DNA of 32,000 nucleotides, taken from assembly GCF_000237865.1 (NCBI RefSeq), contig NC_017459.1:2940001-2972000 (forward strand), read 5' to 3'. The stretch's first letter is position 1. Each line of letters begins with the position of its first letter. A program made the position numbers and the translations under genes. Positions 2,955 to 25,089 of the stretch are shown piece by piece. The notes beneath the pieces were generated by a model that was given only the letters and a program-made list of their open reading frames with translations, searched no databases and was not told the origin of the DNA. This stretch comes from Haloquadratum walsbyi C23. Lineage in GTDB: Archaea; Halobacteriota; Halobacteria; Halobacteriales; Haloferacaceae.

Positions 2955-3222
2955 AGCCCTGTCTCTTACCCACAACTCGAGTCAGGATTTCAGCGGAACG
3001 GGATCGGGATCGGCGAGCACGACTGAAATCCTCGGTATCTACAGTTTCAACACCTCTTTGGAACAATTGTAGTGGGCTTGATTACCGGCGTTCGGTCACC
3101 CCTACAGCCGATATCACTGTCTGAATCGCTTCTCGCCTCGATTTTTTGCGTTCAAAATACCTCTGAGAGTGTCTGAAACGTCCGGTTACGACCCCACGAA
3201 CTTGTGGGTAAGAGACAGGGCT
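2955..3222. mobile_element. 268-bp MITE-like element with perfect 21-bp terminal inverted repeats and an interior derived from a truncated tnpB element
   Basis: 2955-2975 agccctgtctcttacccacaa is the exact reverse complement of 3202-3222. On the minus strand, 3218->3172 matches 12488-12534 at 43/47 positions. The interior at about 3127-3160 resembles tnpB1 coding sequence at about 12554-12590. An internal hairpin aggatttcag/ctgaaatcct lies at about 2984-3032. Confidence 0.7.
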
Positions 3223-3794
3223 AAAGCCGGTGGGCTTCCGCGCTGTATATCGTGTGAACGCAGAGGAACCCGGCGCGTGAGTGGTGGAGATTTCAGGTTT
3301 GTAGTCCTATCAAACTCTGACATGGTGAGACTCCATGCCGGGTTCACGGACTGTGGCAGTCGGGACTGGGACTACTTGGGGTGCTGAGCGCCTGGTACTC
3401 CTATCCTCAATCGTGTTCGGACTCCCAGAGTTGATTTTACTCTAGAAGTCCGACAGACTTCGACGGACTCGGAGTTACTTCCTTGATGCGTGCAATAATC
3501 AATCCCATGCCGATTATGTGAGAATCGGGCGGTCGCCGACTGGTTTCGATTATTGCTTTGATGCGTGGAGCGGCAAAACCGCCATTATAGGACGATGTAG
3601 AATCACTCTATTCTCACCTGATTCCTACTTTTGAATGGAATTGTCTGCTAATTGAAATTATAAATCAAGAATATCGGACAGGTGTCGAAACATGGACTGG
3701 TTCCATATTGTCAGGTTCATTTTGCGGTACCGAGGTCGGTGGTCTCGTTCGCATTGCTTCGTTCAACATGTCGTAACTGTGGGTACCAGAAATC
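3223..3794 (-). mobile_element. About 0.57-kb tnpB-less IS1341-derived element (omega-RNA-like body), decayed
   Basis: The minus strand starts with a degenerate copy of the shared terminus (3794->3775 gatttctggtacccacagtt). The body is collinear by eye with 23617-23863 (shared 16-mer ggactcggagttactt at 3464-3479 and 23848-23863; caggtttg / gactcc blocks). It ends in a decayed RE hairpin at about 3236-3275. Confidence 0.4.
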
Positions 3795-6608: not shown

Positions 6609-7892
6609 ATGGGAACACAAGAGCAGAAAGCGTATCCGATAGACATTCCGAGTGTCCGCGGGGACTTTCCAATCCTCGACCGAAAGGTTGGGGGGGACAT
6701 CGAAACGCCGGGTCCAAGTCCTGATGATACCGATCCACTTGTTTATCTTGACAATGCAGCAACAAGTCAAACGCCAACAGACGTTGTTGAGGCCCTCACA
6801 GAGTACTATTATCAATACAACTCAAATGTCCATCGAGGGATCCATCATCTAAGTCAGGAAGCTTCAGTCGCATACGAGGTCGCACATGACCGTGTTGCTG
6901 AGTTTATTGGCGCTGATGGACGCGAGGAGATCATTTTCACAAAGAATACAACAGAATCAATGAATCTTGTCGCTTACGCATGGGGGCTTGCGGAGTTGGA
7001 ACCCGGAGATACTGTTGTGCTCTCTGAGATGGAACATCATGCATCACTTGTCACTTGGCAGCAAATCGCAAAGCGAACCGGTGCGAATGTTGAGTATATT
7101 CGTGTTGATGAAGATGGCTATCTTGATATGGAACATGCACGTGAGTTAATTGATGACTCAATAGCAATGGTGTCCGTTGTGCATATTTCAAATACGCTTG
7201 GGACAGTAACACCAGTTGAAGAGTTGGCAGAGCTCACACACGACCATGGTGGATATATCTTTATTGATGGCGCACAGTCAGCACCAACGCGACCAGTCGA
7301 TGTCGATGCGATGGACACAGATTTCTTTGCGTTCTCTGGACACAAGATGCTTGGACCGACGGGAATTGGGGTTCTCTACGGCAAACAGGAAATTCTCGAG
7401 TCTATGGAACCATACCTCTATGGCGGGGAGATGATCAGGCGAGTTACATACGAAGACTCGACATGGGAGGACCTGCCCTGGAAGTTTGAGGCTGGAACAC
7501 CTGTTATTGCACAGGCAATTGGGCTTCATGCTGCAATTGATTATCTTGAGGATATTGGGATGGAGACAGTTCAAGCACACGAGGAGTTACTCGCTGAATA
7601 CGCCTATAATCAACTATCTGCATTTGATGATGTCGAAACATATGGTCCACCAGGCGGCGACCGTGGCGGGCTTGTTGCATTCAATCTTGAGGGAGTCCAT
7701 GCGCATGACCTCTCGAGCATCCTCAATGAGTATGGAGTTGCAATCAGAGCCGGTGATCACTGCACGCAACCACTTCATGACAAAATTGGTGTACCGGCTT
7801 CAACGCGAGCCTCATTCTACATATATAATACACGTGAAGAGATTGACGAGCTTGTCACTGCGGTTGATGCTGCACGGGAACTATTTGCCTAA
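6609..7892 (+). CDS. sufS: Cysteine desulfurase, SufS type (class V aminotransferase)
   Basis: 427 aa. Motifs: NVHRGIHHLS, FSGHKMLGPTGIGVLYG (PLP lysine) and RAGDHCTQPLH (catalytic Cys loop). Confidence 0.92.
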   Translation: MGTQEQKAYPIDIPSVRGDFPILDRKVGGDIETPGPSPDDTDPLVYLDNAATSQTPTDVVEALTEYYYQYNSNVHRGIHHLSQEASVAYEVAHDRVAEFIGADGREEIIFTKNTTESMNLVAYAWGLAELEPGDTVVLSEMEHHASLVTWQQIAKRTGANVEYIRVDEDGYLDMEHARELIDDSIAMVSVVHISNTLGTVTPVEELAELTHDHGGYIFIDGAQSAPTRPVDVDAMDTDFFAFSGHKMLGPTGIGVLYGKQEILESMEPYLYGGEMIRRVTYEDSTWEDLPWKFEAGTPVIAQAIGLHAAIDYLEDIGMETVQAHEELLAEYAYNQLSAFDDVETYGPPGGDRGGLVAFNLEGVHAHDLSSILNEYGVAIRAGDHCTQPLHDKIGVPASTRASFYIYNTREEIDELVTAVDAARELFA

Positions 7893-8490: not shown

Positions 8491-8526
8491 GAAAAACCTC
8501 GCCCTTCAGGGCGGGGAAGATGTCAA
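8491..8526 (+). repeat. Solitary RE-type hairpin unit (R-unit) in the sufU 3' region
   Basis: gaaaaaCCTCGCCCttcaGGGCGGGGaagatgtcaa: an 8-bp stem, ttca loop and GATGTCAA tail. The architecture matches the terminal hairpin of the tnpB element at 14535-14569. It starts 39 nt after the sufU stop, on the same strand. Confidence 0.6.
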
Positions 8527-8618: not shown

Positions 8619-8638
8619 GCGAGGCGAAAGCCCGCGAT
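8619..8638 (+). repeat. 5' half of an R-unit split by a MITE insertion
   Basis: gcgaggcgaaagCCCGCGAt aligns with tcgaggagaaagCTCACGAc (15821-15840). The complementary 3' half is at 9161-9184. Confidence 0.5.
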
Positions 8639-8644
8639 TATACC

Positions 8645-9159
8645 CTGTCTTTTACGCACAAGTTGTCCCGACGAGATGGACGGGGTGAAGCGGTGAAAAT
8701 TGCTCCCATTGTCGGGAGTTGGGAATCTCATCTTAAGTAACCGGGTATGCTGACGACGAGTTGACCCGGCTTGAGTAGTCCCTGTGACCCAATCGGTAAT
8801 CCCGGTTGGCGCCTTATGATGATACACTCATCTGTAGCAGTCGGTACCTGCGGAATATCTGGATTAGAACTGTCCGAGTGACAAACTGACACCTGCGATC
8901 AGAGGGGTCAAAACACCGGGTATTCGCTTCTACAGATGAGCGTGGTGATTAATTCAAATAGTTTCACCGGCGGTGTCGAATGACGCGAATTCAGCGGCTC
9001 CCATCACCGATACGGATAATCACGGCGGTTAAGACTAAGACTTAGACTTGGACTAATCGCTATCAGTCCGTCAGGATTTGTCTCAGACCCTGCTTGAAAG
9101 CGGCTAAAACGTCACGTTGGGATGCTGTGGACTTATGAGTAAAAGTCAGGATTTCAGTC
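8645..9159 (+). mobile_element. 515-bp MITE-like element with imperfect 19-nt terminal inverted repeats and an omega-RNA-like interior
   Basis: Left end ctgtcttttacgcacaagt (8645-8663). Right end 9141-9159 acttatgagtaaaagtcag, whose reverse complement ctgacttttactcataagt matches at 15/19. The interior has blocks shared with 23617-23863(-) and with the tnpB2 3' region (9005-9028 vs 14439-14463). An internal 12-bp inverted repeat actcatctgtag/ctacagatgag lies at about 8825 and 8931. Confidence 0.6.
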
Positions 9160-9160
9160 G

Positions 9161-9184
9161 TGGGAGGAGGTCAATTGAAGTCAT
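9161..9184 (+). repeat. 3' half of the split R-unit
   Basis: atttcaGTCGTGGGaggaggtcaa aligns with ttcaATCGTGGGagaagtca (15841-15860). GTCGTGGG pairs with CCCGCGA(t) at 8631-8638. Confidence 0.5.
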
Positions 9185-11537: not shown

Positions 11538-12407
11538 TCATCGTGTTTCCAGTTCACGTTCGAGTTCACGAAGGCGTTCCACACGCTGCTCAGTCGAGGG
11601 GTGAGTGCTGAACAACCGTCCAATAAGATCGCTTTTCACCGGAACAATAAAGAACGCATTCATCTCTGATTGTTCGCGGAGATCCTCACGCGGAACATTT
11701 TCCATCCGACCATCAATTTTCAGCAGTGCTGACGCAAGAGCTGATGGTTGTCCCGAAATAATCGCTCCACCTCTGTCGGCGGCATACTCACGGTATCGGG
11801 AGAGTGCACGGATAAGGAAATATGAGACAATCCAGACGATGAGAGATGCAACAATGGCAATAAGCACTTGACTGCCACCCTCTCGTTCATGTCCACCGCC
11901 AAACCAAAATCCTATTCGGACAATCATGAATGCGACTGTCGAAAGGAATGACGCAATTGTCATTATCATAACGTCACGGTTCTTTATATGTGCAAGTTCG
12001 TGCGCGAGAACGCCTGATAATTCATCTTGATCGAGTGAACGCAGTAGTCCAGTCGTTACAGCGATTGTTGCACTATCTTTCGAACGTCCGGTTGCGAATG
12101 CGTTCGGAACCCGTGAGTCAGCAACTGCAACATCTGGCTTTGGGAGATCAGCCTGTTGGCTGAGTCGATTAATCGCCGTGTGAAGTTCAGGATATTCATC
12201 TTCGGAGACTTTTGATGCCCCCATGCTGTAAAGCGCAAGCTTATCGCTGAAGAAGAGCTGTGCAAGTACAAACACTCCCATCAATGGGAGGAATATAAGT
12301 GACCGCGACCACCACAGCGCCCCAACGAAGACCAGGTATAGGGCGAACAGAAGGAACATTGTTAGAGCCATTCTGCCACGTAGTCCCCAGTCTGTTTTCC
12401 AGTCCAT
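11538..12407 (-). CDS. htpX: Zn-dependent membrane protease HtpX (peptidase M48)
   Basis: 289 aa with N-terminal TM helices, the HELAHIKNRD (HExxH) motif, two further TM helices, and a C-terminal ..FSTHPSTEQRV. Confidence 0.93.
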   Translation of the reverse strand: MDWKTDWGLRGRMALTMFLLFALYLVFVGALWWSRSLIFLPLMGVFVLAQLFFSDKLALYSMGASKVSEDEYPELHTAINRLSQQADLPKPDVAVADSRVPNAFATGRSKDSATIAVTTGLLRSLDQDELSGVLAHELAHIKNRDVMIMTIASFLSTVAFMIVRIGFWFGGGHEREGGSQVLIAIVASLIVWIVSYFLIRALSRYREYAADRGGAIISGQPSALASALLKIDGRMENVPREDLREQSEMNAFFIVPVKSDLIGRLFSTHPSTEQRVERLRELERELETR

Positions 12408-12536
12408 ATATGCAATACGTGTTGAACGTAATAAACGGTGTCGCAGATGGATTACAGAAGTTCAAGGAGAAAGCCCTCCCTTGAGGTCTGTCTTTTACAC
12501 ATAAGTTCGTGGAGTCGTAACCGGACGTTTCAGAGT

Positions 12537-13433
12537 ATGACGTTTTCGCAGTCTGGCTTCGAACTCAAAAACACGAGTGACCGACACGCGACAATCTGGC
12601 TCTCCAAAATCGGAGACATCCCGATCCGCTACCACCGCGAAATCCCTGACGAAGCGGACATCAAAGAAGTTACCGTCAAGAAGGAAACAACCGGTAAGTG
12701 GTTCGTCTGCTTCGGGCTCGAAACCGACGACGCTGACCTTCCTGAGAAACCCGACGTGGAGTCTCTCAACACAACCAACAGCGTTGGGATTGATCTCGGT
12801 AGTCTCAATTACATCTACACAACCGATGGGAAGACCGTGGATTGGCTTGATCTCGAAGACGACTACGAGCGATCGCGCCGCGAACAACGCAAACTCTCAC
12901 GGAAGCAGAAAGGGTCGAACAACTACGAGAAACAACGGCGAGAAGTAGCGAAGCTGAAGCGGCACATCCGTCGGACAGTGTTGGACTACCAGCACAAAAT
13001 AACGACGTGGCTCGTCCGTGAGTACGACGCGGTGTTCGTCGAGGACTTGGACGTAAAGGGAATGTTGGAGCAGTCGCACAATGCTCGCAACAAGCAAGAT
13101 GCAGCGTGGCGACAGTTCATTACACTGCTCGAGTATAAGGCCGGTCTGTACGGCTGTCACGTCGTGCAGATCAAACCAGAGGGAACGACGAAAGAATGTG
13201 CGTCGTGTGGTGTAGAAACAGCAAAACCGATTTGGGTACGTGAACACTCCTGCCCGTCATGTGGGTTTGAGTGTGATCGTGACGCGAATGCGGCGATGAA
13301 TGTCCTGCAACGCGGTTTTTTTGAAGTAGGGCTGGAATGGCCCGAAGACACGCCTGTGGAGACTGCGCTCCCTACGGACACCCATTCGGTGTCTGCAAAG
13401 CGCGTCATCGAAACAGGAAGCCTCGGGGCTTGA
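12537..13433 (+). pseudogene. tnpB: tnpB (OrfB/IS1341-type RNA-guided nuclease family), copy 1, N-terminally truncated
   Basis: RuvC motifs SVGIDLG, VFVEDLDVKGM and CDRDANAAMN. Zinc ribbon CASCG..CPSCG. The RuvC Asp lies only about 85 aa after the first Met, compared with about 190 in full-length TnpB, so the REC/WED N-terminal part is missing. The frame stays open upstream through the terminus to 12438. Confidence 0.8.
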
Positions 13434-13440
13434 CCCCAAG

Positions 13441-14325
13441 ACGGTTCACTCGGCTATTCAGGACCAAGCCATTCGAGAAGCGAAATCTGACCACAGCAAA
13501 GATGGGGAAGTTGAATACCGAGAGAGTCAACCGTTCGCAGTCAACAACCAGAATGGGGAGATCGACACAACCGATAACGGCACAGTCGTCATCGGATTCC
13601 CGTGTGTTTCTCAGTGGTGGTACACGCCTATTGAAGTGTACGACGATATTGCCGATTCTGTAGACCGACTGGTCGAAGGTGACGCCGACAAATCCCGTCT
13701 ACAGGTCTACGGTCGTGGCGACGACTGGTACTGTACATTCAACGCCGAGTACGATACCGACACGTCGAATGGGACATCCATCGGTGTCGATATTGGCGAA
13801 CGACATATTCTCGCTGCAACGGCTTATGATGAAGATGAGTCAATGCTGGTGTCAGGTGATGAGGCAAAGTACGTTCGGCGCAAATATCGTTCCCTACGCG
13901 ATTCGCTCCAACAAGCGGGTGCGCTTCGCGCACGCAACCGTGTGGGTGACAAAGAACAGCGTCGAATCAAGGACTTAAATCATAAACTCTCACGTCGCCT
14001 CATCACGTTCGCGGAACAGTTCAAGAATCCAGTCATCAAACTGGAAGACCTCGAAGGTATCCGCAAGAATAGCTCGTGGTCAGCCATTCACTCGTGGCAC
14101 TTCTATCAACTCCAACAGTTCATCACGTACAAAGCAGAACGTGCTGGTATCAGCGTCGAGAAGGTTGACCCGTACCGTACCAGCAAACTATGTTCAGAAT
14201 GTGGTTCAATTGGAACTCGTGATGAAGATCACTTTTTATGTTCGGAGTGTGACCGTGGACGACATGCCGACCTAAATGCTTCAGAGAATATTGCACAACG
14301 TGAGGGAGAACCATGCACGGCGTAG
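13441..14325 (+). pseudogene. tnpB: tnpB, copy 2 (different subfamily), N-terminally truncated, no start codon at the junction
   Basis: The frame is open from about 13420: ..[35 protein letters not shown]. RuvC motifs [18 protein letters not shown] and [10 protein letters not shown]. Zinc ribbon CSECG..CSECD. The ORF track starts only at GTG 13636. Confidence 0.75.
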
Positions 14326-14569
<244 letters not shown>

Positions 14570-14609
14570 TTAATTTATTGATACTCATAAGATATCGTGC
14601 AGACTGATA

Positions 14610-15788
14610 ATGATTAACCGCATTGATAGATTATATATATCAATGAGTTCTGGAGAATTCTGCCCGCGATGTGGTGATGTTATTTCCAAGCAGCCGTCAT
14701 CACGTCCAGGTGCTCCGCATGAGCGTGATGCTGTCCTCTGTAATGATTGTTATTTTGCGGACTTCGAATTAATTGACGCACCTGAGCGGCTTGAAGTGCA
14801 AGTATGTGCGAGATGTGGTGCAGTCAAAGATGGGAGTCAGTGGGTTGACGTTGATGCGGATGATTACACTGAGGTTGCAATCGACCGAATAACCGAATCA
14901 CTTGGTGTACATCTCTCCGCTGAAGAAATCCAGTGGGGTGTCGAACCCGAGCAAGTTGATGAAAATACAATTCGAATGCATTGTACATTTAGCGGAGTTG
15001 TCCGCGGAACGCATCAACAAGAGCGTATTACAGTTCCTGTCCTTATCTCTCGGCAAACTTGTCAGCGATGTGGACGGATCGCTGGTGGGTATTATGCAAG
15101 CATCGTGCAAGTACGTGCACGTGAACGAACACCAACAGCAACTGAACAGCAGCGCGGTGTCGAAATCGCTGAATCATATATTGCAGATCGTGAGGCAACT
15201 GGCGACCGAGATGCGTTCATCTCGGAAATAACAACGACGGATGATGGGACGGATATCAAAATATCAACCAATCAATTAGGCAGCGGTGTTGCAGCACAGA
15301 TTGTCCGTGAGCTTGGAGGGAATGTATCAGAGTATCCAACGCTTGTGACTGAAGATGGAGATGGAAATGAAGTTTATCGGGTGACATATGCAGTTCGACT
15401 GCCAGAATTTACCCCTGGAGACGTAATTGAACCTGCTGATGAGGAGGGTCCGGTCGTTGTCCGAAGTGTACAGGGAAATCTGAAGGGTGTCCGAGCAACA
15501 ACAGGAGATTCATATGAGGCGTCATTTGAAGATGGTATCGCACCGGATGCAGAGCATATTGGAACGGTTGATGATGCTACCGAAACAACAGTGGTCGCGT
15601 TCGAAGACACATATGCGATGCAGGTGCTTGATCCAGAAACATATGAATCAAAGACAGTCGCCCGACCGTCATATGTTGACCCTGATGCAGCGACTGTTCC
15701 AGTCATTAAGAGCCATCAAGGGCTGTATGTGCTTCCAACATCAGTGGTAAAAATAAATAATAAGACTAAGTCAACAGATCCTCAGTGA
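14610..15788 (+). CDS. NMD3 family protein (60S/50S biogenesis-related zinc-finger protein)
   Basis: 392 aa with CPRCG, CNDCYF, CARCGA and CQRCGR zinc-binding pairs, then an NMD3-type body. The true start may be the Met at 14643 (MSSGEFCPRCG). Confidence 0.85.
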   Translation: MINRIDRLYISMSSGEFCPRCGDVISKQPSSRPGAPHERDAVLCNDCYFADFELIDAPERLEVQVCARCGAVKDGSQWVDVDADDYTEVAIDRITESLGVHLSAEEIQWGVEPEQVDENTIRMHCTFSGVVRGTHQQERITVPVLISRQTCQRCGRIAGGYYASIVQVRARERTPTATEQQRGVEIAESYIADREATGDRDAFISEITTTDDGTDIKISTNQLGSGVAAQIVRELGGNVSEYPTLVTEDGDGNEVYRVTYAVRLPEFTPGDVIEPADEEGPVVVRSVQGNLKGVRATTGDSYEASFEDGIAPDAEHIGTVDDATETTVVAFEDTYAMQVLDPETYESKTVARPSYVDPDAATVPVIKSHQGLYVLPTSVVKINNKTKSTDPQ

Positions 15789-23579: not shown

Positions 23580-23863
23580 TTGACATTCTCCTCCGTCTGA
23601 AGGCAGGAGGGATCACGGCACCGCACCGCTTCGCTGAGTTGGGGGTGTCAGGTTTGGGTTTGAGTTTGGGTTTGCAGACTCCCAATACTAATACCAAGTC
23701 AGTCCACCGTTGGAATCGGTGTGTGACCGGTCACTGCGCAATCTCCAGGGAGTGCTACATCTCAGCCCCCAATGCTCCTCTCCTCACCTGAGGCGAAGTC
23801 CCTGTGTTGGTTGTGCCACAGGAGTTTCGATCATTGTCACTGTCACCGGACTCGGAGTTACTT
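23580..23863 (-). mobile_element. 3' part of a tnpB-less IS1341-derived element (omega-RNA-like body with intact terminal R hairpin), separated from its 5' part by an IS1595 insertion
   Basis: The minus strand ends gatCCCTCCTGCCttcaGACGGAGGAGaatgtcaa (23614->23580). The body shares blocks with 8868-9030 and 14439-14463 (cacaccg..caac.cggtgg) and with 3260-3479. Confidence 0.55.
23651..23674 (+). repeat. Hexamer microsatellite (GGTTTG-like x4)
   Basis: ggtttg ggtttg agtttg ggtttg, read directly. It lies inside the element above. Confidence 0.8.
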
Positions 23864-24871
23864 GTACGCTCTTGTGAAGTACATTGTTGGTGAGTCAGAG
23901 AACTTCTCGGATAATCTGTTTCAGTGCTTCTTGTCCCGGTTTGCGGAGGATTCGTCGCCGAAGTTGGAACGGCCTGAGATATGCTGTCAGTTTGTCCTTT
24001 GAGACGCCTCGATGCGGCGAGAGCCACCGTCGCGCCAGCGACGCGTGGCTCTCGCACGTGTTCACATGTGCGTCTCCATCAACGTACTCGCCGTCACCGT
24101 GAATTACTGATTCTCGGTGGAAGCTCTCATCATTGTCGAGTGGATCGTAGGCACGAAATCCGTCAGTATAGATGCTCAGCGACTCCTTCTCGTGGTTGTC
24201 GAGAAGGAGTCGCACGGTCGTTTCATCGGCGGATTTCGCTGGGACGACGTATCGCTGACCGCTGCCCCGATCAACGAGCGTGAACACTGGCGGTTTATCA
24301 CCCTCATACGTTCCTCGTCCGCGTTTCGAGAGGGCACGCGAGCGCGACTCTCGATCGCGCTCGCGACCTTTCTTCCCAGCAGAGACATAGAACTCGTCGA
24401 TCTCGACCGGTCCAACGAGATCGATTGTTGGCGCGTCGAGCGTTCTGGCGAACTGCTCGACGCGCCGGTGAAGCGAGCGATACGAAACGTCAATTTCAGC
24501 GTCTAACTGGCGGATACTCGTGTTGAACCGGAGGAACGAGTAGAACGCGAACAACAGCTTATCGAGGCCGATCTTCGCGTGCGCAAAAATCGTGCCGGTT
24601 TTGTCGTTGAACGTGCGGTCGCAATCCTTACACAGGTACCGTTGATACTCTCGATAGCTGCCGTGTTTGATTACCGACTCAGACTGGCAGCGCGGGCAAC
24701 AGAGGCCCTCTCGCCAGCGAACCTGCTCCAGCAGGTTCGCGGCGCTCGCCTCTGAGCTCAGCAATTCAAATGGGAACATTGCGTTCAGGTGACGCGTCGC
24801 GTCACTCTTGCCCGCTACGCTTTCACGGCGATAGCTTTACCCGACCAACAATCTGCTTCAGAAGAGCGTAC
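23864..24871 (-). mobile_element. IS1595-family insertion sequence (about 1.0 kb)
   Basis: Imperfect terminal inverted repeats: 23864-23891 gtacgctcttgtgaagtacattgttggt vs the reverse complement of 24844-24871, gtacgctcttctgaagcagattgttggt (25/28). It has a single transposase ORF. The exact tips and target duplication were not resolved. Confidence 0.75.
23895..24779 (-). CDS. IS1595-family transposase (N-terminal zinc ribbon + DDE domain)
   Basis: 294 aa: CPRCQS..KHGSYREYQRYLCKDCDRTFNDKTGT zinc-ribbon motif, then a DDE region (..VEIDEFYV.., ..IYTDGFRAY.., ..NTCESHASLARRW). Confidence 0.88.
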   Translation of the reverse strand: MFPFELLSSEASAANLLEQVRWREGLCCPRCQSESVIKHGSYREYQRYLCKDCDRTFNDKTGTIFAHAKIGLDKLLFAFYSFLRFNTSIRQLDAEIDVSYRSLHRRVEQFARTLDAPTIDLVGPVEIDEFYVSAGKKGRERDRESRSRALSKRGRGTYEGDKPPVFTLVDRGSGQRYVVPAKSADETTVRLLLDNHEKESLSIYTDGFRAYDPLDNDESFHRESVIHGDGEYVDGDAHVNTCESHASLARRWLSPHRGVSKDKLTAYLRPFQLRRRILRKPGQEALKQIIREVL

Positions 24872-25089
24872 TTGTATTGGTGACGAGAGCCCAATGGCTG
24901 TTTGATTCCCACATGGGGCACCCTGTTTCCAGCGTGGGCGGACACTCTCACTCGAATCGCCACTTTTCGGGCACTCGGCTGCATCGGGGTCAGAGCCAAT
25001 GCGCCGTTGTACAGCAAAACCGGTTGAAAACTACAGTATGACGGCGCGTATCCACGCCGTGAGCAGGCGTGGTATTGCGCCTGTACCAT
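24872..25089 (-). mobile_element. 5' part of the element interrupted by the IS1595 copy
   Basis: A GC-rich non-coding block starts right after the dedA stop. It has a hairpin ccacgcc tgctcac ggcgtgg near 25040-25060. The block adjoining the IS (24878-24915) loosely parallels 3480-3512. Confidence 0.35.

Follow-up and report, generated by a model that had tools for sequence, protein, structure and literature searches.

Within the 32,000-nt stretch of Haloquadratum walsbyi C23 that we analyzed (referred to as the window herein), the gene for an HtpX-like protein (11538-12407) lies next to an ORF (12438-13433) that reads through a short transposon end and into an IS1341-type tnpB, one of two different tnpB genes at this locus (tnpB-1 and tnpB-2, Table 1). 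The HtpX-like protein is encoded identically in strain HBSQ001 (AM180088.1), in several H. walsbyi assemblies and in saltern metagenomes, and the window is ~98% identical to AM180088.1 and these other H. walsbyi sequences; comparison loci are cited by their L numbers. The product of tnpB-1 contains OrfB_IS605 and Cas12f1-like_TNB domains (Pfam). When aligned to the intact L005 protein, its homology starts at about residue 102 of 408, residues 1 to ~101 being missing. Its right-end hairpin resembles the HqIRS46 and ISNph12 ends listed by Dyall-Smith et al. 2011 (PMC3119063, Table S9). The tnpB-1 element is nested within that of tnpB-2 (12465-14569), whose right end matches a PATE in L131 at 92%; L131 also holds an intact hairpin, GAGAAAGCCCCGCGCTTCAGGGCGGGGATGAATCC, paralogous to the one of which the outer element retains the 5′ half.

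Table 1 Features of the window, motifs beside the terminus, and full-length relatives in other genomes. Coordinates are those of the window; x/19 gives matches to the Tn5 outside end as assumed in the text.
Feature	Position	Strand	Details
Terminus copy	2959-2977	+	15/19
Terminus copy	3200-3218	-	16/19
Terminus copy	8645-8663	+	15/19
Terminus copy	9131-9149	-	15/19; A at position 4
Terminus copy	12488-12506	+	15/19
Complete HqIRS35-type MITE, subfamily M1	2959-3218	-	260 bp; repeats 2959-2977 and 3200-3218
5′ half of IS605-type left-end hairpin	3219-3243	-	Minus-strand reading GCGCGGAAGCCCACCGGCTTTAGCC; target of the M1 MITE
Left-end-type hairpin half, left flank of M2	8622-8644	+	AGGCGAAAGCCCGCGATTATACC
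MITE of second subfamily, M2	8645-9149	+	505 bp; repeats 8645-8663 and 9131-9149
HqIRS39 MITE within M2	8825-8942		118 bp; C23-specific, absent from L001-L006
Right-end-type hairpin half, right flank of M2	9150-9174	+	GATTTCAGTCGTGGGAGGAGGTCAA; fits right-end consensus ...GGAGGATGTCAA (PMC3119063, Table S9)
5′ half of left-end hairpin, outer tnpB-2 element	12465-12487	+	AGGAGAAAGCCCTCCCTTGAGGT; target of the MITE whose stump follows
Solo 'A' end of HqIRS35-type MITE (stump)	12488-12534	+	47 nt; last 8 nt, GTTTCAGA (12527-12534), shared with tnpB
5′-truncated IS1341-type tnpB-1 and right end	12527-13449	+	Stop codon 13431-13433; right end finishes ...GACGGTTCAC at 13449
3′ part of tnpB-2 and right end	13450-14569	+	Gene part 13450-14325, ORF 13636-14325 (Pfam); finishes GGGAGAATGTCAA (ATGTCAA) at 14569
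Hairpin-half motif	5′ side of left end		GAGAAAGCC...
Hairpin-half motif	3′ side of left end		Reverse complement of ...GGGATGAATCC
Hairpin-half motif	5′ side of right end		GGGAATCC...
Hairpin-half motif	3′ side of right end		Reverse complement of ...GGAGGATGTCAA
Full-length elements with the same ends	L042, L075, L078, L114, L116		1662-1663 bp; among the matches listed
Full-length elements with the same ends	L018, L121		1489-1492 bp; among the matches listed
Full-length elements with the same ends, planctomycete	L064, L067		1537 bp; among the matches listed

The transposon end at 12488 begins with a 19-nt terminus that recurs in the window. An earlier note on this DNA had described the recurrence as a degenerate pattern, and when we searched for that pattern with up to three mismatches, we found five matches in the 32 kb where shuffled sequence predicts 0.02. 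All five copies that the note had listed as well preserved are therefore real, save that the one given as 9159-9141 is 10 bases off and runs from 9149 to 9131; the A that the note had seen at its position 4 is present. With the family consensus CTGWCTYTTACNCAYAAGT, six matches were found versus 0.21 expected from shuffles. We took the sixth, at 15639-15657 on the minus strand, for a chance match since it has three mismatches and encodes ...ETYESKTV... within a conserved NMD3 coding sequence; on these statistics and in that context we rejected it as a remnant. Compared with the Tn5 outside end, which we take to be CTGACTCTTATACACAAGT as given in the earlier note, the best copy agrees at the claimed 16 of 19 positions and the other four at 15, while sites scoring at least 15/19 are expected 0.09 times by chance (Poisson-binomial, both strands of the window). 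At 12488 the similarity extends beyond the terminus over 47-55 nt, with 87% identity to 3172-3226.

Two further traces proposed in the earlier note did not withstand the same comparisons. The supposedly decayed copy at 3793-3775 scores 13/19, a score reached by nine sites in the window versus ~6 expected, and when the sequence around it was aligned locally to the MITEs, the score stayed at the level of shuffled sequence. Likewise, the 10-mer at 14582-14591, which had been read as a vestige, aligns to the MITEs no better than shuffles do; its place is not in a hairpin but 13 nt downstream of the tnpB element's right end.

Two of the five copies bound a complete MITE at 2959-3218 (M1), whose inverted repeat is perfect over 21 nt. 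With MITEs in HBSQ001, J07HQW1 and L044 the M1 copy shows 89-94% identity, and with those from other genera 65-71% along the entire element; the MITE found at the htpX-tnpB locus in HBSQ001 and further H. walsbyi strains stands at 89%. Its length falls within the 241-266 bp that PMC3119063 (Table S8) gives for HqIRS35 ('Duanwu' in an earlier MITE survey), a MITE of ISHwa2 with a 16/19 repeat and a 10-bp duplication that occurs at 34-36 copies per strain. M1 shares with HqIRS35 the host organism, the 19-nt repeat, a nominal 10-bp duplication, the multi-copy habit and the insertion in PATEs or IS605-type elements. By length, repeat and the 89% identity, the copy at 2959-3218 thus belongs to HqIRS35, as does the 12488 stump by a 44/47 match described below. 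The 10-mers flanking M1, CCCTCCAGCC and GGCTAAAGCC, match at 6/10 positions and do not form a clean duplication. The hairpin half at 3219-3243 has the form of the left-end halves that flank copies elsewhere and of ends in PMC3119063 (Table S9).

The L044 copy lies at 6620-6879 of a MAG labeled 'Halorubrum sp.' (LUM.57); its 94% identity to 2959-3218 exceeds that of the HBSQ001-locus copy (89%) and of J07HQW1 (90%), which suggests a recent transfer or a mis-binned Haloquadratum contig. As a test for a structured RNA in the conserved interior of HqIRS35-like MITEs, RNAalifold analysis of 18 copies from several genera returned terminal-repeat pairing only, with essentially no covariation, and Rfam gave no match in the window at gathering thresholds.

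The pair at 8645 and 9149 bounds a second MITE subfamily (M2), which shares with M1 only the ~20-nt ends; M2 is 251-256 bp long in other genomes. We aligned it end to end with copies in Halorubrum sp. SY-15 (L082, 256 bp) and H. walsbyi J07HQW1 (L080, 251 bp), and also to the HBSQ001 copy. Its 505 bp in C23 are due to a nested HqIRS39, which PMC3119063 (Table S5, row 680) places at C23 2948825-2948942, together with a further insert of ~125 bp. HqIRS39 has the ends CACTCATCTGTAG.../...CTACAGATGAGCG. The ~125-bp insert (about 8946-9068) is common to C23 and HBSQ001 and absent from the Halorubrum and J07HQW1 versions; a short AGACT-rich repeat is 12 bases longer in C23 than in HBSQ001 (about 9033-9044). 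Because M2 has only its ends in common with the HqIRS35-like family, the sequence at 8645 diverges immediately after 19-21 nt. This divergence, which the earlier note had taken to suggest that the terminus is a separable module, is real and has a trivial explanation, namely that these MITE families share just the ends bound by the transposase. The flanks of M2 are non-matching hairpin halves, again without a clean duplication. Given such flanks, the insertions at 2959-3218 and 8645-9149 are old or rearranged.

To place the terminus in a wider context, we scanned one genome per species with CTGTCTYTTACNCAYAAGT and obtained at least 120 matching stretches of DNA. Of the matches listed, about 100 come from haloarchaea, which represent more than 25 genera, and about 20 from bacteria. 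The inverted pairs of ends among them include about 45 MITEs of 243-273 bp as well as the full-length elements of Table 1, each of which carries a single ORF of 464-486 aa. Those of L078 and L064 contain the Pfam domains Tnp_DNA_bind, DDE_Tnp_1 and Dimer_Tnp_Tn5; the last passes in L064 and, at 20.7 bits, lies below the Pfam cut-off of 26.7 in L078. The L078 ORF aligns over its full length (residues 24-469) with the Tn5 transposase structure 1MUS (E = 5e-39). One homologue bears the database name 'Tn5-type transposase ISHwa2', and others occur in Salinibacter and MSBL1. The IS4-like transposase gene flanked by the terminus, for which the earlier note had advised a search, is thus found in other haloarchaea, in elements of 1.49-1.66 kb. 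The window holds none (best tblastn E = 0.16), so its copies are non-autonomous.

Since the same 19 nt bound elements that encode a full-length Tn5-like transposase, we attribute the resemblance to the Tn5 end, which the earlier note had pointed out, to homology. The reading least probable of all in our view is that this resemblance is a coincidence and that the repeats come from an unrelated haloarchaeal IS family. Ends of many IS families do start with short common motifs, and the comparison covers 19 nt only; against this stand the five copies at 15-16/19 where 0.09 chance sites are expected, and the fact that elements with these ends encode a protein whose homology to the Tn5 transposase spans the entire sequence and takes in the N-terminal end-binding domain. 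The ~19-bp repeats are accordingly those of the IS4 family, IS50 group. With IS50/Tn5 of Escherichia coli, the window copies share the 19-bp ends of the form CTG(A/T)CTCTTA...CACAAGT, and the haloarchaeal relatives share the three transposase domains, the full-length alignment and a preference for palindromic targets. In contrast to IS50/Tn5, the haloarchaeal family is strongly biased to one class of palindrome, the apex of IS605-type hairpins, and has abundant MITE derivatives; its transposases are only distant relatives, as the E value of 5e-39 to solved Tn5 structures indicates.

Within H. walsbyi the corresponding autonomous element is ISHwa2. According to PMC3119063, ISHwa2 is related to Tn5 (main text) and is a 'Tn5-type' element of 1661-1668 bp with a 19/20 repeat and a duplication of 10-11 bp (Table S8). 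The relatives found here agree with it in the terminal 19 nt, in 10-bp duplications, in the Tn5-like transposase and in size class (1659-1663 bp), whereas the window copies differ in being without a transposase gene. Our look-ups of proteins, plasmids and contigs for ISHwa2 of H. walsbyi itself returned relatives with the same ends, none of them demonstrably from C23 or HBSQ001, hence the link between HqIRS35 and ISHwa2 in C23 rests on PMC3119063 and on homologous elements in other genera. The same paper states that ISHwa2 is absent from other archaea and found the family only in Haloquadratum, unlike the spread over more than 25 haloarchaeal genera seen among the matches listed.

The planctomycete relatives show a peculiarity of their own. 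The 1537-bp elements at 397-1933 of L064 and 210-1746 of L067 (Planctomycetaceae MAG) have identical 19-nt ends that are flanked by 13 further nucleotides in inverted orientation, GCTGGGTCTTGAC / GTCAAGACCCAGC, and other planctomycete copies adjoin a recurring GTAGGGTGGGC motif. These flanks are either part of a longer repeat or a repeated palindrome that is also targeted.

To learn where the family inserts, we compared the 25 nt outside the archaeal ends, which are strikingly regular among the matches listed. There, strict hairpin-half motifs of left-end or right-end type (Table 1) match 64 of 101 archaeal flanks, T at -7 and A at -4 each occur in 91/101, and the GARAAAGCC motif seen at 8622-8644 is found in 32/101. 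As PMC3119063 (Table S9) shows, haloarchaeal IS605/IS1341 elements and PATEs end in these flank motifs. Perfect 10-bp duplications, such as GGCTTTAGCC, GACTACAGTC and CCCTGAAGGG, border 27 of the 53 complete elements among the matches listed. The target duplication of IS50 is 9 bp, versus 10 bp in these relatives; the flanks of the window copies are degenerate (6/10 for M1, non-matching for M2). We then reconstructed empty sites by removing each element and one copy of the duplication, and counted as palindromic those with at least 6/7 symmetric pairs centered on the duplication. Among the matches listed, 56% of the empty sites were palindromic, compared with 0.29% of random positions in the same loci. 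The target is a hairpin apex with the consensus nnCTnnAGnn, flanked by CCAC/GTGG. The terminal hairpins on the left and right of haloarchaeal IS605/IS1341 (tnpB) elements, and of the PATEs derived from them, have this apex.

Each of the three window sites obeys this rule: 3219-3243 (minus strand) is a left-end half, 8622-8644 and 9150-9174 are a left-end and a right-end half, and 12465-12487 is a left-end half. Every copy adjoins a hairpin half because the family prefers the palindrome at the hairpin apex as its target. The upstream flanks that the earlier note had called different do differ in sequence; they are nevertheless related, all being halves of IS605-type terminal hairpins. IS200/IS605 (IS1341-type) elements and PATEs thus adjoin the terminus, and the hairpin halves beside every copy are theirs. 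Unlike the element studied here, they are its targets and have neither inverted terminal repeats nor duplications; their ends read TTAC followed by a hairpin on the left and ...GGATGTCAA or ...GGTTCAC on the right. Of the 31 nested MITE insertions counted in PMC3119063, 30 lie in PATEs or IS605-type elements; the paper also describes two other sites at which the orientation of HqIRS35 is reversed between the two strains. The apex-centered geometry, the nnCTnnAGnn consensus and the spread across Halobacteria are, as far as we found, not described in that paper.

A minority of elements have flanking 10-mers that are not direct repeats but reverse complements of each other (e.g. GGCTGAAGCC / GGCTTCAGCC), and in others the 10-mers derive from visibly different hairpins. 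Such odd flanks occur in L015, L062 and L086, in L003 (9920-9929 and 9657-9666) and in the window (2949-2958/3219-3228 and 8635-8644/9150-9159); they may have arisen by recombination between MITE copies residing in different hairpins. The window also contains two solitary pieces resembling IS605-type right ends or omega RNA. The piece at 365-394 is 90% complementary to the right end of tnpB-1 at 13420-13449 and that at 8494-8526 reads GAAAAACCTCGCCCTTCAGGGCGGGGAAGATGTCAA; both are probably PATEs.

We next compared the 12488 locus with its counterparts in other H. walsbyi sequences. In L002, L003 (HBSQ001), L005 and L006, htpX is followed by a left-end hairpin interrupted by an entire MITE of 253 bp, the 5′ portion of tnpB-2, TTAC and the left end of a second element, tnpB-1 with its right end (...GGTTCAC), and finally the rest of tnpB-2 with its right end; tnpB-1 is intact (408 aa) in L001 and L005. 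It follows from this order that the tnpB-1 element is nested in that of tnpB-2 and that the hairpin interrupted by the MITE is the left-end one of the outer element. The stump at 12488-12534 agrees at 44/47 positions with the far end of the HBSQ001 MITE when that end is reverse-complemented, and at 20/47 with the end that occupies the equivalent position in HBSQ001, which implies that the C23 MITE had the opposite orientation to that of the other strains. The MITE sequence ...GGACGTTTCAGACAC... and the tnpB-1 sequence ...GGGAGTTTCAGAGTATG... meet in the window as ...GGACGTTTCAGAGTATG..., which places the junction within the shared GTTTCAGA. At this junction the window is missing ~920-940 bp that are present in L002-L006. 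The strain comparison of PMC3119063 (Table S5, row 682) records the same difference as 34 bp in C23 (2952488-2952521, window 12488-12521) versus 957 bp in HBSQ001, classed as in_transposon with HBSQ as the ancestral state. The earlier note had described the terminus as fused in frame to the middle of tnpB. While the ORF does read through, the fusion point is a deletion junction at GTTTCAGA and the frame is accidental.

Between C23 (12465-12487) and HBSQ001, the left flank shows 3-4 differences over about 16 positions, which is above the 2% background. We considered the C23 flank as a simple inversion of the HBSQ001 arrangement and rejected this, as the sequences fit no single flip. In metagenome contigs, the exact C23-type junction had 0 matches, and the search for an intermediate allele, in which a full-length MITE would have the C23 orientation, was likewise negative. 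A search of metagenome contigs sharing the upstream flank returned two HBSQ001-type alleles and one paralogous PATE (L131), and no true empty allele. At about 9758-9916 of L001, an H. walsbyi assembly, the MITE at the htpX-tnpB locus is without its first ~105 bp, with a junction reading GGGCTGT/GGAGTTG; this truncated MITE is a third allele at the site, beside the complete MITE and the C23 stump.

These comparisons bear on both origins that the earlier note had offered for the terminus. One took it for the true left end of a family of tnpB-only (IS1341-type) elements, standing beside the right-end hairpin of a neighboring copy. The position of the 19-mer directly upstream of, and in frame with, the tnpB ORF at 12488, and its constant proximity to IS605-type hairpin halves, would agree with this. 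However, where tnpB is intact (408 aa), the element starts after TTAC with its own hairpin and without the CTGTCT motif (L002, L003, L005). At that locus the motif is part of an independent inverted-repeat element of 253 bp, which lies inside the hairpin of an outer tnpB-element remnant, ~390 bp ahead of the tnpB start codon. Moreover, among the matches listed the copies are paired in inverted orientation at a spacing of 243-273 bp and bordered by 10-bp duplications, whereas IS200/IS605 elements are without inverted ends or duplications (PMC3119063, Table 4). Among the matches listed, no homologue of TnpB-1 starts just inside an end, three near-end hits being outside the element. The true left end being without the motif, we hold this origin to be refuted and give it next to no credence.

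The other origin was that an IS4-type end had captured a segment of tnpB and omega RNA and now mobilizes a composite tnpB transposon bounded by inverted repeats. That the end is of the IS4 family has proved correct, and in favor of a capture one could cite the fusion to tnpB at 12488 and an inverted match with three mismatches 3.1 kb downstream (15639-15657). This match, however, falls within the conserved coding region of NMD3, and chance alone predicts 0.21 matches of its kind, leaving the end at 12488 with no credible partner. Compared with six other H. walsbyi sequences, the junction is a unique deletion confined to this strain; PMC3119063 classed it as derived from an ancestral HBSQ001 state, and metagenome contigs yielded no second copy. 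The TnpB left at the junction is truncated by ~100 N-terminal residues, and among the matches listed no scanned locus has tnpB just inside an end. A captured composite is therefore very unlikely, if marginally less so than a tnpB left end; the association with hairpins reflects target-site choice and the tnpB junction at 12488 a deletion.

[quoted passage not shown] If the mechanism resembles that of Tn5, a dimer of transposase provided in trans would bind both MITE ends, excise the element and insert it elsewhere, with a 10-bp target duplication in this family. At 12488, we infer that the left-end hairpin of the outer tnpB element once contained a MITE in the C23 orientation, which had arrived by independent insertion or by re-insertion at a hot spot. 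A deletion between the 8-nt direct repeats GTTTCAGA, one in the MITE and one in tnpB, would then have removed the rest of the MITE, the 5′ part of the outer element, the left end of the inner tnpB element and ~100 tnpB codons, with the in-frame junction as an accident of that deletion. Insertion in the C23 orientation followed by deletion at GTTTCAGA is the most economical history.

Elsewhere in the window, at 23867-24868, lies a 1002-bp ISHwa6 specific to C23, with 33-nt inverted ends (23859-23891 and 24844-24876), a transposase ORF of 294 aa on the minus strand (23895-24779) and a locally raised G+C content (0.58); PMC3119063 (Table S5) lists this insertion at C23 2963867-2964868. The three strain-specific features, HqIRS39, the 34/957-bp replacement and ISHwa6, map to the C23 coordinates of Table S5 with a constant offset of 2,940,000, which places the window at 2,940,001-2,972,000 of the C23 chromosome.

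The feature itself is already known, as the repeat, its kinship with Tn5 and the MITE status were published in 2011 (PMC3119063). What goes beyond that paper is the presence of the family in most haloarchaeal genera among the matches listed, the conservation of an HqIRS35-like MITE over its full length at 65-71% identity, and, as a modest lead, the apex-centered insertion on the hairpins of TnpB elements. For annotation, it means that ORF 12438-13433 is the product of a pseudogene-making deletion, not a gene with a new N-terminus, and that the hairpin halves beside each copy are interrupted IS605-type ends.

We see an even chance that ISHwa2-type full elements and at least two conserved MITE families of ~250 bp, spread through most haloarchaeal genera, have evolved near site-specific insertion at the hairpin apices of TnpB elements, which would make this a "transposon that lives in transposons" and a widespread natural antagonist of TnpB elements. 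If so, insertion into a right-end hairpin would, judging from the known TnpB/omega-RNA layout, cut the omega-RNA scaffold from its guide, and insertion into a left-end hairpin would spoil the hairpin recognized by TnpA. For the mining of TnpB and omega RNA in haloarchaea, many "odd" right ends or guide-less omega RNAs may carry inserts of ~250 bp.
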